Below, one piece after another: positions 54,782-58,684 of a stretch of DNA of 64,000 nt (position 1 is its first letter; every line of letters starts with the position of its first letter). The stretch comes from an uncultured Bacilli bacterium (lineage in GTDB: Bacteria; Bacillota_I; Bacilli_A; RF39; UBA660). The notes beneath the pieces were generated by a model, which saw nothing but the letters and a program-made list of their open reading frames with translations, was not told the origin of the DNA and did no database searches. The position numbers and the translations under genes were made by a program. The stretch covers positions 50,946 through 114,945 of the forward strand of contig CAKOXW010000001.1 in NCBI GenBank assembly GCA_934130375.1. The letters are read 5' to 3'.

Positions 54782-55228
54782 ATGGAAAATATTATTGGAG
54801 TTTCTCAAGATAAATTAGAGAGTTTAGAGCAAAAATTAGTTAATGAAAAGCTAAAGTTTTTAGATGAATATTGTACATTTGGTTGTGATAAGTATGATGC
54901 TGAATATTTGCTTAAATTAAATAATTTCTTATTTGGTGATTTATATGGACCACTTTGTTATAGATTAAGTGCTTATACTGGTATTATTAATTCATATATG
55001 CATACTATAAATGAAGAAGGAGTTGGAGATAAGAATTTAGATGTTATTTTTGATAGATTACAAGCACTTTGGGATTTACAACCTTTCTTAGTTGGTAATA
55101 CAAGGACCTTTGCAGCATTTATTAAAATTATAAATGAAGCATATAATTTAAAACTAAATATTGACCCAGATTGTGAACTTTATAGTGGTATGAATTTACT
55201 TGATATAGTTGATAATAAGAAGAAATAA
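54782..55228 (+). CDS. small Fic-like protein with degenerate active-site motif
   Basis: …LNNFLFGDLYG…QPFLVGNTRTFAAF aligns to the Fic core HPFx(D/E)GNGRxxR with substitutions His to Gln, Asp/Glu to Val, Gly to Thr. Confidence 0.4.
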   Translation: MENIIGVSQDKLESLEQKLVNEKLKFLDEYCTFGCDKYDAEYLLKLNNFLFGDLYGPLCYRLSAYTGIINSYMHTINEEGVGDKNLDVIFDRLQALWDLQPFLVGNTRTFAAFIKIINEAYNLKLNIDPDCELYSGMNLLDIVDNKKK

Positions 55229-55230
55229 TT

Positions 55231-57087
55231 ATGGCAATTCCTAAGACTAGTTTTATAAATTATGGAAGATGTAGAAGATATGTTTCTTTATCTGAAGTAA
55301 AGAAAGATAAACTTAATGCAGATATATCTTATGAAGAATATAAGAATGAGGAATTAGATGAAGAGATTAAAAATTTATTATCTGAAATGTACTCTGATAG
55401 TGATGAAGATTTAATTGATACATCTAATCCTGAACTTGAAGTAATGCTTCCTTACTATAAAGAAATAGAAATGCTAGCAGGTTCTAAGATTAAGAATTTA
55501 TTTGGTGGAGAAGTAGTTTATGCTCTTGACACTAAGAAACAACAATCTTTTGATTTTAAAGAAGATGGTATTAGATATTTATGTTATGTAGATATTTATA
55601 ATGAACTTGATAATGAAATAAATATTATAGAGGTTAAAGCAACAACTAGTAATAAGTATCTTTCTTTAGAAGGTGGTTATAGAAGTACTAAAAATAATAA
55701 ATGTTCTAAATATTCAATATTTTATAAAGATAAAAGAGGTATATATCATTTAAAAGAAGATTTAGAAAATTTTGATATAACTAAAGAGATGCCTAATAAT
55801 TCTTATTTGAAAAAAAGAAGTAAGTTACTTGATAGGTTTGATGAATGTGGCAAGTATATTTATGATTTGTCTGTTCAAAGAATGATTATTGAATGTGATT
55901 TGAAAGAACATAATTTTACTAATAAAAAGATAAATTATTATTTGGCTGTTTTAAATTCTGAATATGTATTTGATGGTAAGTATGAAAATAATAAGCCTGT
56001 TTATGGTGATGATATTATAAGCATCTTTGAATTTAATAATATAACTAAAGAAATGCAGGAAAAAGTATTATTAGATAAAGAAAATATAAAGAAGTACTTG
56101 CTCGAAATGGATGTAAGTCCTTGTCCAATTGGAATTTGTTGCGAATATAAAAGTAAATCTAAGTGTAAATTTTGTCCGATATGTTTTAAGAAAATACCTA
56201 AATATAATTCATCACTTGATTATATGAATAATGGTTTTGGTTTTAAGGATGATGATGGATGTATCCATAAAGGACTTGATTTAATTAATGAAGGATATTT
56301 AAACATGTTAGATATTCCTAAATCTTGGATTAAAAATGAAAATCATTTAATACAAAGAGAGTGCTTAGAAACAGGTAATCAATTTATTGATAAAGATAAA
56401 ATAAAACTCGCACTTAATAATATAAAGTATCCAATATATCATTTAGATTTTGAAACATTTCCTTGTCCTCTTCCTAGATTTAGAGGTGAAAAATGCTATA
56501 CTCAGTCACCATTTCAGTTTTCACTACATATTGAAAAAGAACCAGGTGTATGTGATAAAGAGATTAATCATTATGAGTTTTTATCTAGTAATCCAAATAA
56601 TGATGATAGATTAGAACTAGTTAAGAAATTAGTTGAATATATAAAACCTGATGGTACTTTGTTCGCACAGAATGTAGGATTTGAAAAAGGTAGGATTAAG
56701 GAACTAGCAAATACTTTTTCTCAGTATAAAGATAAGTTGATGAGTATATATAATACAGGTTCTGATTTACTTTATATAATAAAGGGCAATAGTGAGTTTT
56801 ATAAATCATTAAATTATAGTGATAATGAGTCTAAGAGAGTAAATTTTTATGATTATCGTTTAAGTGGTTCTTATTCTATAAAGAAAACACTTCCTGTATT
56901 TAGTGATTTATCTTATAGTAACTTAGATGTTAAAAATGGAACAGAAGCTCTTGTTACTTATGCTTCATTTAAAACGATGCCAAGTGAGTTAAAAAGATTA
57001 AAATATAATTCATTACTTGAGTATTGTAAGCAAGATACATGGGCAATGGTTGTAATATTAAATAAAATTAGAGAAATGGTTAAATAG
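55231..57087 (+). CDS. Cas4-like Fe-S PD-(D/E)XK nuclease fused to DEDDy-type 3'-5' exonuclease-like domain (DUF2779-type architecture)
   Basis: N-terminal YGRCRRYVSL (Cas4/RecB-type Cys plus Arg). VDIYNELDNEINIIEVKAT (D…E-x-K). CPIGICCEYKSKSKCKFCPICF (Cx2Cx2C cluster). C-terminal YHLDFETF (Exo I), NVGFEKGRIKEL (Exo II-like), LEYCKQDTWAMV (Exo III Yx3D). Confidence 0.55.
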   Translation: MAIPKTSFINYGRCRRYVSLSEVKKDKLNADISYEEYKNEELDEEIKNLLSEMYSDSDEDLIDTSNPELEVMLPYYKEIEMLAGSKIKNLFGGEVVYALDTKKQQSFDFKEDGIRYLCYVDIYNELDNEINIIEVKATTSNKYLSLEGGYRSTKNNKCSKYSIFYKDKRGIYHLKEDLENFDITKEMPNNSYLKKRSKLLDRFDECGKYIYDLSVQRMIIECDLKEHNFTNKKINYYLAVLNSEYVFDGKYENNKPVYGDDIISIFEFNNITKEMQEKVLLDKENIKKYLLEMDVSPCPIGICCEYKSKSKCKFCPICFKKIPKYNSSLDYMNNGFGFKDDDGCIHKGLDLINEGYLNMLDIPKSWIKNENHLIQRECLETGNQFIDKDKIKLALNNIKYPIYHLDFETFPCPLPRFRGEKCYTQSPFQFSLHIEKEPGVCDKEINHYEFLSSNPNNDDRLELVKKLVEYIKPDGTLFAQNVGFEKGRIKELANTFSQYKDKLMSIYNTGSDLLYIIKGNSEFYKSLNYSDNESKRVNFYDYRLSGSYSIKKTLPVFSDLSYSNLDVKNGTEALVTYASFKTMPSELKRLKYNSLLEYCKQDTWAMVVILNKIREMVK

Positions 57088-57095
57088 GTGTTGAT

Positions 57096-57371
57096 ATGAG
57101 AGAATACGAAGTAATTAGTAGGGATAATTATACTTATATTTTAAGATGTAATAACAAGGATTATAAGTATAATATAGAGTTTTATGATTTTTATGTAGAT
57201 GTTGGTGATATACTTTATTTTCCTTCTAGTATGTTTAACAATGAGAAAGTTTTATGTTTTGGAGATGTTAAATCTATATATGGAAAAGATATGAATAAAT
57301 ATACTAGAGATGATTTACTTATTATAAAGAAAGGCAATGATATTTATTATCTAAAGAGGTATTATGGCTAA
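57096..57371 (+). CDS. hypothetical protein (91 aa)
   Basis: Sits in the polA-coupled operon. No motif. Confidence 0.4.
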   Translation: MREYEVISRDNYTYILRCNNKDYKYNIEFYDFYVDVGDILYFPSSMFNNEKVLCFGDVKSIYGKDMNKYTRDDLLIIKKGNDIYYLKRYYG

Positions 57372-58684
57372 TGAATAGTGATTTACAATATATTAAGAAA
57401 AAATATGGGGAAAAGATGATGCATTTTTGTAGAGAAAATTTTTCTACAATTCTTGAAAAAGAAGGATTATTAACTCAAGTATTTAGTAGTTATTTTAATG
57501 AAAGTAGAAGTTTATATGATGACTTAAAAGAAAATAACTGGTTATTTCAATTTAAAAACTTTATTGTTAAAAAGGCAAGTAGTGGTGAAAATTCATTAGA
57601 TACTAATTTAACTGATACTAATAAGACACCTGAAGAATTAATGGATGAAGTAGGATATGTGCTTAAACAATGTTTTTCTGAAGATGAGATACAAAGCTAT
57701 AAAAAGTATTATAGAGATGATGAAGCATTATGTACTTTTCATGGAAATAGATTAGATAAATGTACTGTATTCTTTGCTGTTAAAAAAGATGTAGATAGTA
57801 TTATAAGAAGTGATTATAGAAATCCAAAAAGAGAAGATGTATATGGAACTTCAGTAATAAGTATACAATTTACTAAGGATGGTACGAATACTTTATCTAT
57901 AAAGAATAGATATAATCATACTATTGACAATCCTGATGCGACATTTGGAAATAATTTAGAAAATATTATTCCGGGTCTTACTGAGAGTTTTGCAAAAACA
58001 TATGGATTAAGGCAAGAAAATCCATCAGTAGACTTTGAAATACCTGGATATGTAAGAGCAAATGATGGTAAGTTTTATAAATATAATTATGAAATAAATA
58101 ATATTTATTATTGTCCTGATAATATAATAATAGATAACTTTAGTGTTAAGAAATTTGATAAAAGTTTATATTTTATATTTGATTATTTTATGATTGATTT
58201 ATCTAAATCTAATAGAAGTATTATTTGCTATGATAAAAAAATAGGCGATGGCTTTTTTAGTACGATTCCTAAGATAGAAAGAATTGCTATTGAAAATATT
58301 GAAGATGGTAAAAGAGTAGTTATACTTGGTTCTAATAATGAATGTATGGAACTTACTTTGGATAAAGATAATAGAACTAAGAAGCTAAGAATGGAAAATA
58401 TAAGTAAACCAAAAGATGGTTTTATGTTTAAAAATGAAACAATAGAGGAACTTGATTTAGGCAGTGTTGATACTCTAGATTATGATACATTCTTCCATAA
58501 TAAGACATTAAGAAAAGTAAATGCACCAAATTTAAAAAGAATTGATGATTATGTTTTAGTGTATAATGAAGCGTTAGAAGAATTTAATGCACCAAATCTA
58601 GAATATATTGGTGATATGTCTTTAGAACGTTCTAAAGTATTAGAAAGTTTAAAAAATCAAATTGGTGAAAATAAGACTAAATAA
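57371..58684 (+). CDS. hypothetical protein (437 aa) with C-terminal repeat region
   Basis: Overlapping start. The C-terminal …NAPNLKRIDDYVL…NAPNLEYIGDMSL looks like short LRR/BspA-like repeats. Confidence 0.4.
   Translation: MNSDLQYIKKKYGEKMMHFCRENFSTILEKEGLLTQVFSSYFNESRSLYDDLKENNWLFQFKNFIVKKASSGENSLDTNLTDTNKTPEELMDEVGYVLKQCFSEDEIQSYKKYYRDDEALCTFHGNRLDKCTVFFAVKKDVDSIIRSDYRNPKREDVYGTSVISIQFTKDGTNTLSIKNRYNHTIDNPDATFGNNLENIIPGLTESFAKTYGLRQENPSVDFEIPGYVRANDGKFYKYNYEINNIYYCPDNIIIDNFSVKKFDKSLYFIFDYFMIDLSKSNRSIICYDKKIGDGFFSTIPKIERIAIENIEDGKRVVILGSNNECMELTLDKDNRTKKLRMENISKPKDGFMFKNETIEELDLGSVDTLDYDTFFHNKTLRKVNAPNLKRIDDYVLVYNEALEEFNAPNLEYIGDMSLERSKVLESLKNQIGENKTK

Follow-up and report, generated by a model that had tools for sequence, protein, structure and literature searches.

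Does the tightly packed gene string behind the DNA polymerase I gene polA form one functional unit, or does it only share a place on the chromosome? This question was raised by a stretch of 64,000 nucleotides (nt) from an uncultured Bacilli bacterium (contig CAKOXW010000001.1, positions 50,946 to 114,945; hereafter the window), in which polA is followed by four open reading frames (ORFs), here called genes 1 to 4, and then by rpoZ and recX. Gene 1 encodes a degenerate Fic-like protein, gene 2 a DUF2779 protein, gene 3 a short protein, and gene 4 a leucine-rich-repeat (LRR) protein. A first-pass annotation, made from the letters alone, had read genes 1 to 4 as one polA-coupled cluster, either a repair module for processing DNA ends or a defense-type nuclease island. 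We propose instead that the locus is a mosaic around an old DUF2779 core gene, a putative DNA-end nuclease, which was later joined by genes 1, 3, and 4 as passengers, and we regard this reading as fairly probable.

The assignment of gene 2 to DUF2779, made in the first-pass annotation, was borne out by a profile check, in which PF11074 matched residues 403-549 over its entire length (profile 1-126 of 126) with an E value of 8.4e-32 and a score of 110.5 bits, above the cutoff of 23.3. A homolog search found 2520 proteins; PF11074 was present in all 120 listed homologs, and the sole named match among the matches listed was "DUF2779 domain-containing protein [Bacilli bacterium]." No other Pfam family matched gene 2, and NCBIfam and PADLOC were empty for it. 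Searches against the PDB sequences gave nothing useful, either with the single sequence or with a 30-sequence profile, and the profile did not find Cas4; the two folds of the protein were revealed by structure comparison only. The AlphaFold2 model, computed with 30 homologs, had a mean predicted local distance difference test (pLDDT) score of 83.7 and a predicted template modeling (pTM) score of 0.78, with low confidence only at residues 1-64 and 295-320. Its top fold matches were mostly DNA exonucleases and polymerase proofreading domains, with RNase D, Rrp6, and Pop2/Caf1 also present, and the weaker Foldseek matches were Pop2/Caf1, human EXO5 (7lw7), and 4ic1. These results demonstrated, at the level of a predicted structure, that gene 2 encodes a DUF2779 ortholog in which an N-terminal Cas4/EXO5-like PD-(D/E)XK domain is joined to a C-terminal DEDDy 3'-5' exonuclease domain.

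The motifs on which a Cas4-like/DEDDy fusion had earlier been predicted were all located in the protein (C14-R-R, D121, E134-V-K136, C312-KF-C315-PI-C318, YHLDFETF at 403-410, and Y598-CKQ-D602). In an alignment of 30 sequences, comprising the window protein and 29 relatives at 53-96% identity, the residues D121, E134, and K136 of the PD-(D/E)XK head were invariant (30/30), as were D406 and E408 (HLDFET), E485, D512, Y598, and D602 of the DEDDy head. E485 lies within an Exo II-like Q-N-x2-F-E motif (N481-x2-F-E) and is probably the Exo II acid, with D512 as the alternative. Thus both heads of the predicted fusion stood, but the Cx2Cx2C cluster assigned to it did not: the cysteines kept in all 30 sequences were C14, C304, C312, and C318, which form a Cx7Cx5C pattern, whereas C315 was kept in only 11. 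This conservation points to C14 plus Cx7Cx5C as the likely ligands of a putative iron-sulfur (Fe-S) cluster, in a region that was modeled at pLDDT 35-69. A four-cysteine site of this kind holds an Fe-S cluster in Cas4 and AddB.

The genomic setting of the family was surveyed with one genome per species, which yielded 80 DUF2779 loci whose neighbors were identified by tblastn with the window proteins. Most of the loci came from metagenome-assembled genomes labeled as uncultured gut Bacilli, "Tenericutes," Mollicutes, or Erysipelotrichia, approximately 15 were labeled "Muribaculaceae," and the named records included Clostridium sp. CAG:1193 and Candidatus Onthocola. DUF2779 was located directly upstream of rpoZ in 69 of the 78 assessable loci, with a median gap of 76 nt (range 70-113), and is a chromosomal housekeeping gene fixed upstream of rpoZ in uncultured low-GC gut Bacilli. 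One relative (L002, 67% identical) showed the order polA-DUF2779-rpoZ-recX with nothing between the genes, and another (L004, 53%) showed DUF2779-rpoZ without polA. In contrast, homologs of genes 1, 3, and 4 were detected by tblastn at the DUF2779 locus in none of the 80 species loci, and the seven-gene order of the window was observed only in close relatives, namely L001 (DUF2779 95% identical) and L165 and L166 (gene 4 78% identical). The first-pass annotation had also named membership in a widespread conserved polA neighborhood of known function as a ground for refutation; a conserved neighborhood was indeed found, a known function of DUF2779 was not. As a separate observation, a pilin-like ORF of approximately 113 amino acids (aa) with an N_methyl motif lies directly upstream of DUF2779 in the clade whose DUF2779 proteins are 52-54% identical (L056:5655-5999).

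The leader of rpoZ recorded where two of the additional genes came in. An eight-locus alignment showed that this leader (70 nt) is conserved, with a TGTAAAC box after the preceding stop codon, a promoter-like TTTACA/TTGAA-17-TAATAT, and the ribosome-binding site (RBS) AGAGGTGA. In the relatives the leader begins directly after the DUF2779 stop codon, and in the window directly after the gene 4 stop codon, a position that places the apparent insertion of genes 3 and 4 between the DUF2779 stop codon and the leader. Judged from these elements, rpoZ probably also has its own promoter.

Genes 3 and 4 were traced to other settings. The gene 4 family comprises more than 3486 matches, and many members are longer and end in PF13306 BspA-type LRRs. 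Gene 4 itself consists of a conserved N-terminal domain of unknown fold (~300 aa) and a C-terminal third of BspA-type LRRs; this third, together with the longer C-termini of the relatives, matches the BspA-type LRR proteins of gut bacteria (PF13306; PDB 4FS7, 4GT6, and 4H09), and no signal peptide was evident in gene 4 by eye. The gene 4 homologs were found after an arginine deiminase operon (L005, L006, and L167) or near an integrase (L007), and none near polA or DUF2779. Gene 3 matched no family in profile searches; however, the ORF directly after the gene 4 homologs of L005, L006, and L167 encodes 94 aa and shares 36% identity with gene 3 (E 8e-16). Since the pair recurs elsewhere, genes 3 and 4 appear to be partners, whose order is reversed in the window. 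The comparison of gene orders thus showed genes 3 and 4 to be a separate pair that was, by all appearances, inserted later. Repeats flanking the inserted genes were sought as a sign of mobility, and only one was found, a 24-nt repeat (83% similar) shared by the two junctions that flank gene 1 (polA/gene 1 and gene 1/gene 2); since it consists mostly of an RBS and a start codon, it was rejected as an unconvincing trace.

Gene 1 belongs to a family of its own. Its motif QPFLVGNTRT (residues 100-109) has Gln for the catalytic His and Val for the acidic residue, and the protein itself gave no match to PF02661 (Fic) at E <= 1. A word-indexed search retrieved only five near-identical proteins, whereas an exhaustive search retrieved 53 cluster representatives of approximately 150 aa. 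A family profile of 42 members matched Fic structures (E. faecalis Fic 5nv5, 7.4e-9; VbhT, 3.4e-8), aligning QxFxDGNtRt on HPFREGNGR, and 34 of the 42 relatives matched PF02661 individually (best 3.1e-7). The Fic fold with a crippled motif, as first proposed, was thereby confirmed through the family; the PF02661 check failed for the window protein alone and succeeded for most of its relatives. The His position is occupied by Gln in 39/42 members, Lys in two, Glu in one, and His in none; G105 and N106 are invariant, R108 is kept in 38/42, and the acidic residue is Asp in 29/42. We concluded that gene 1 is a predicted catalytically dead relative of the Fic fold, and that the crippled motif is a trait of its family. 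A segment that resembles the inhibitory motif [ST]xxxE[GN] (TINEEG, aa 75-80) is not conserved in the relatives and probably arose by chance.

With the Fic AMP-transferases (5NV5; VbhT, 3SHG/3ZCB), the gene 1 family aligns over approximately 125 residues that include the motif region and an N-terminal NKLGI segment; unlike Fic/Doc proteins, gene 1 has only about 150 aa, no helix-turn-helix domain, and no antitoxin partner, and its family sits in various housekeeping operons. MMSYN1_0805 of JCVI-syn3.0 is described as an essential inactive Fic with Ser for His (PMC13621843). Both proteins thus lack the catalytic His, Ser taking its place there and Gln in 39/42 here, and the window copy has additionally lost the acidic residue; we regard the two as a parallel rather than as demonstrated orthologs.

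The distribution of the gene 1 family was equally scattered. Distant members (~30-38% identity among those compared) were found in the cotE-rpsP interval and after either uvrC or a gene for a DnaA/DnaC-like ATPase. A degenerate DNA pattern for QxFxDGNTRT, followed by hmmsearch, recovered further relatives in the mnmE-mnmG and rpsO-pnp intervals, close to a Mur ligase gene, and upstream of an ORF that encodes topoisomerase I domains. The presence of the family inside so many different housekeeping operons thus argues against a specific tie to polA, and gene 1 is, from the gene orders compared, a lineage-specific insertion between polA and DUF2779. A gene 1 homolog (58%) occurs again between polA and DUF2779 in three further loci (L088-L090), whose flanking proteins are only ~66% identical to those of the window, and these represent a second lineage with polA-gene 1-DUF2779. 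In two other loci (L058:4825-5634 and L040:4820-5629), a 269-aa Fic-domain protein (PF02661 7.6e-7) carries QPFADGNKRT, again with Gln for His; the order there is this Fic(Q) gene, a 114-aa ORF, DUF2779, and rpoZ, and the DUF2779 protein is 52-53% identical to that of the window.

The features of the locus are compiled in table 1. The ORF list reproduced exactly the coordinates given for genes 1 to 4 in the first-pass annotation, and all four ORFs are real genes, as conserved homologs exist for each; the rpoZ calls in L001, L002, and L165 were likewise 64 aa long. Successive junctions from polA to gene 4 measure 12 nt (with GGAGG ahead of the ATG), 2 nt, 8 nt, and a 1-nt TAATG overlap. Terminator-like hairpins flank the string at 50992-51017, after a gene identified by eye as pyruvate-phosphate-dikinase-like, and at 59915-59930, after recX; the terminator scan found no such site between 51017 and 59915, and in the promoter scan the best plus-strand promoter-like site lay at 51083-51111. 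On these grounds, it is plausible that all genes from the 289-aa ORF immediately preceding polA (51303-52172) through recX are co-transcribed, in agreement with the co-transcription with polA that had been suggested. The use of spacing as a sign of coupling was another matter: the tight and overlapping junctions are real, but 23 of the 51 same-strand junctions in the window are <=15 nt, with 54 of 58 ORFs on the plus strand and 90% of the sequence coding. Since tight spacing is the norm in the window, spacing alone tells little about shared function.

Table 1.— Coordinates of the polA-recX string in the window, and gut metagenome contigs in which Gln-type pseudo-Fic genes (X, ~150-170 aa) were located
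Feature	Position or contig	Strand	Description
polA (DNA polymerase I)	52220-54769	+	849 aa; NF004397 934.7 bits; PF00476/PF02739/PF01367/PF22619
Gene 1 (predicted pseudo-Fic)	54782-55228	+	148 aa; Fic fold by family profile; motif QPFLVGNTRT
Gene 2 (putative DUF2779 dual nuclease)	55231-57087	+	618 aa; conserved core gene of the locus
Gene 2, N-terminal half, predicted Cas4/EXO5-like PD-(D/E)XK	55423-56220	+	approx. aa 65-330, plus C14 upstream; D121, E134, K136
Gene 2, C-terminal half, predicted DEDDy 3'-5' exonuclease domain	56413-57087	+	approx. aa 395-618; D406, E408, E485 and/or D512, Y598, D602
Gene 3 (apparent partner of gene 4)	57096-57371	+	91 aa
Gene 4 (LRR protein)	57371-58684	+	437 aa; N-terminal domain ~300 aa and C-terminal BspA-type LRRs
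rpoZ leader	58685-58753	+	promoter-like TTTACA-17-TATTAT at 58706-58734; RBS AGAGGTGA
rpoZ (RNA polymerase omega)	58754-58948	+	64 aa from ATG at 58754; TIGR00690 1.1e-12, PF01192
recX (RecA regulator)	59047-59805	+	NF010733 7.8e-51; RecX_HTH1/2/3 domains
Gln-type pseudo-Fic slot mnmE-X-mnmG, gut metagenome contigs	L095, L159, L124
Gln-type pseudo-Fic slot rpsO-X-pnp, gut metagenome contigs	L104-L107, L113, L143, L147
Gln-type pseudo-Fic, other contigs	L093 (after uvrC), L092, L091		~150-170 aa

The surroundings of the string are core chromosome, with mutL, recG, a gyrA/parC-type subunit gene, ftsK, and smc in the window besides polA, rpoZ, and recX. As noted in the first-pass annotation, polA is not followed by mutM or coaE, and neither gene turned up anywhere in the window in a crude motif search, which is a weak test. 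No CRISPR-like array, Rfam element, or cas gene was found within the 64 kb. A 618-aa ORF at 4125-5981, considered as a paralog of gene 2 of the same length, proved to be mutL and is unrelated. The 289-aa ORF upstream of polA matches phrog_11037 (5.7e-16) and, at a weak level, an endolysin phrog. This ORF contains an HVHIE motif, ends in a coiled-coil-like tail, is conserved in L001, and belongs to no Pfam family. Elsewhere in the window, a 759-aa protein (44398-46677) with DUF5411, Big_2, and a C-terminal pretoxin-HINT domain resembles a polymorphic-toxin carrier and is followed by two ORFs (46689-47624 and 47611-48174), and a 937-aa protein (685-3498) combines an N-terminal prepilin-type methylation motif with Listeria-Bacteroides (Flg_new) repeats and a glycine-rich domain. 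Beyond recX, a 21-nt tandem repeat (60060-60125; 3.1 copies, 80% matches) occupies the convergent intergenic region between recX and a minus-strand rotamase (PrsA-like) gene.

A possible role for the core gene was suggested by its neighbor polA. The exonuclease-like domain of the polymerase (aa 290-470) is of the Bst type: it matched PF22619 and not PF01612, and against the PDB the region matched the Bst large fragment (4.5e-12) better than Klenow (5e-5). Bst-type Pol I enzymes have an exonuclease-like domain that lacks proofreading, and the domain type suggests that the Pol I of the window is likewise without intrinsic proofreading. A trans-acting 3'-5' exonuclease encoded next door is therefore an attractive, if speculative, idea. 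Nucleases of the Cas4/AddB/EXO5 class resect 5' strands, and those of the DEDDy class remove 3' nucleotides. By analogy, 5' single strands would be the substrate of the Cas4-like head of DUF2779, and 3' tails or mismatched 3' ends that of the DEDDy head, so that the protein would trim DNA ends of both polarities in repair or recombination, a role that the neighbors polA and recX fit, and would work beside a Pol I with a vestigial Bst-type proofreading domain. Gene 1 and the gene 3-gene 4 pair were, from the gene orders compared, inserted later into tight junctions of a polA-DUF2779-rpoZ-recX string, and their products would be co-transcribed passengers rather than subunits.

Three other explanations were weighed against this mosaic. 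In the one closest to the earlier repair-module proposal, polA and genes 1 to 4 constitute a single DNA-end-processing unit coupled to Pol I, with genes 1, 3, and 4 as regulators or adaptors of DUF2779. Such a unit would account for the tight and overlapping junctions and the terminator-free interval from 51017 to 59915, for the persistence of the whole arrangement down to 78% gene 4 identity, for the recurrence of polA-gene 1-DUF2779 in the second lineage (L088-L090), and for the other Gln-type pseudo-Fic near DUF2779 in L040 and L058. However, genes 1, 3, and 4 are at the locus in 0 of 80 species relatives while DUF2779-rpoZ persists, gene 1 relatives occupy at least five other operon contexts, gene 4/3 pairs lie far from polA and DUF2779, and tight spacing is the genomic norm here. 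The four-gene, Pol I-coupled repair module thus did not survive the comparison, and we consider the single unit quite unlikely. It is also unlikely, in our judgment, that DUF2779 acts on RNA, in 3'-end trimming or turnover of transcripts, with its place before rpoZ reflecting a link to transcription. The adjacency to rpoZ in 69/78 loci and the presence of the DEDDy enzymes RNase D, Rrp6, and Pop2/Caf1 among the fold matches speak for such a substrate, and few RNA exonucleases are generally found in genomes as reduced as these; nevertheless, DNA exonucleases and polymerase proofreading domains make up most of the top fold matches, heads of the Cas4/EXO5-like type are known from DNA enzymes, polA and recX are the neighbors in the clade of the window, and rpoZ has its own conserved promoter-like leader.

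The defense island, in which a nuclease, an LRR sensor, and a toxin-like Fic protein would act together against phages or plasmids, was left without support and appears very improbable. Gene 1 did match the PADLOC candidate PDC-S04 (1.7e-8) and phrog_12747, but both matches span only its N-terminal 50 residues and look like a generic likeness to Fic, and the Fic motif is dead in every member of the gene 1 family. PADLOC-DB v2 contained nothing for genes 2 and 3 and only a marginal partial match for gene 4 (E 0.005, "orphan methyltransferase"); genes 1 and 4 had no phage matches, and the gene 2 family is nearly missing from phage records, with six faint and incomplete matches (12% of the query, E ~2e-4) in records of Helicobacter heilmannii phage. 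DUF2779 is moreover a syntenic core gene across 80 species within housekeeping surroundings, and the family is reported as quasi-essential in a phage-free minimal cell (PMC13621843). What favors a defensive role lies farther away, in DUF2779 genes on plasmids of Aliarcobacter and Helicobacter (L162, NZ_CP032824.1; L163, NZ_AP028024.1; L164, NZ_CP053838.1; proteins of 425-512 aa), which have Qat, dGTPase, helicase/ATPase, and Fic/Doc genes beside them; the Helicobacter plasmid carries two Fic genes and a Doc toxin gene within 3 kb of DUF2779.

Several of the observations weigh against a DNA-end nuclease at the core of a mosaic. These Campylobacterota plasmid genes adjoin large AAA ATPase/DEAD-box helicase genes, with a dGTPase gene and a Qat system close by, and some distant members of the family probably serve defense or plasmid functions. 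polA is directly upstream of DUF2779 only in the closer clade, at DUF2779 identities of at least 58% (L009, L014, and L016-L020); strict adjacency was counted in 7 of 69 assessable loci for polA and in 11 of 68 for recX after rpoZ, so that these links are limited to a sub-clade. The strongest synteny is with rpoZ and not with a repair gene, and in view of the apparent promoter of rpoZ, the adjacency may mean little functionally. The recurrence of polA-gene 1-DUF2779 in L088 and of Fic(Q) in L040 and L058 makes a link between gene 1 and DUF2779 possible, and the exonuclease-like domain of polA was typed only at the domain level. As our literature search found no biochemical study of any DUF2779 protein, we infer its substrate (DNA or RNA), its polarity, and its Fe-S binding, and RNA may be the substrate.

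The architecture of gene 2 was already known, and gene 2 is a further member of the DUF2779 family. A survey of the RNase H-like superfamily placed PF11074 (family F.17) in the 3'-5' exonuclease clade and noted that it occurs together with DUF83, a PD-(D/E)XK-like domain (PMC3985635). For MMSYN1_0389 of JCVI-syn3.0, a quasi-essential DUF2779 protein, PMC13621843 gives the same two-domain reading; it reports HHpred matches to 7MID/4IC1 and 8UN9 and a Tyr at the DEDDh position, and it counts just two of the four cysteines. The mutants recorded in a cell-culture survival screen include one with a transposon insertion in DUF2779 of M. bovis (PMC7373297). Gene 2 thus shares the Pfam family and the two-domain architecture with MMSYN1_0389 and F.17, including Tyr in the fifth position of the DEDD exonuclease, and keeps the D...ExK and DEDD residues, and all are chromosomal genes of low-GC, reduced-genome Bacilli and Mollicutes; in contrast to the two cysteines reported for the Mycoplasma protein (PMC13621843), all four are kept in the window protein and in the 29 relatives aligned with it. 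The rpoZ/polA/recX synteny is without mention in the available portions of PMC13621843 and PMC3985635. New here are the conserved synteny of DUF2779 with rpoZ (and with polA and recX), a four-cysteine set that is intact, and the family of Gln-type pseudo-Fics.

Compared with better-known enzymes, the N-terminal head of gene 2 resembles the Fe-S PD-(D/E)XK DNA-end nucleases Cas4 (SSO0001, PDB 4IC1), the AddB nuclease domain, and human EXO5. The first-pass annotation had proposed a search with Cas4-type profiles; neither PF12705 nor Cas4 matched any window protein at E <= 1, nor did any Cas_Cas4/PDDEXK_1 entry of Pfam or NCBIfam match gene 2 at that threshold, and the relation is visible only through structure. 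Cas4 proteins have the cysteine spacing Cx2Cx5C, whereas that of gene 2 is Cx7Cx5C; cas genes and CRISPR arrays are absent from the 64 kb, and no cas genes were called in the related loci. Unlike Cas4, AddB, and EXO5, gene 2 is fused to a second nuclease and has no helicase partner at the locus; neither gene 2 nor the adjacent genes contain the helicase domain of AddAB/RecBCD-type machines. Among the DEDDh/DEDDy 3'-5' exonucleases (MrfB, 8UN9; Pol III epsilon; ExoI; the DinG exonuclease domain; Klenow/WRN/RNase D), gene 2 stands at 8-16% identity, and its domain is not joined to a polymerase or helicase.

For the DUF2779 family, the synteny supplies a testable context, which points to DNA maintenance and away from defense. 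More specifically, and with only a modest chance of being right, we put forward DUF2779 as a housekeeping DNA-end trimmer of reduced-genome Bacilli and Mollicutes, a helicase-free enzyme of two polarities that would replace missing AddAB/RecJ-type resection and the lost proofreading of Bst-type Pol I, and that Gln-type pseudo-Fics encoded nearby in two or three lineages would modulate. What favors the trimmer is the polA/recX synteny, together with catalytic residues that are intact. DUF2779 belongs to the small set of quasi-essential JCVI-syn3.0 genes still without a known role (PMC13621843), and its four-cysteine orthologs from gut bacteria are offered as better-behaved proteins for biochemistry than the Mycoplasma one. 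The Gln-type pseudo-Fic family is a modest lead of its own, and the minimal cell offers a parallel in its inactive Fic, which is essential but unexplained. If true, the DNA-end-trimmer proposal would explain both the quasi-essentiality of DUF2779 in a minimal cell and its retention between polA and rpoZ-recX.

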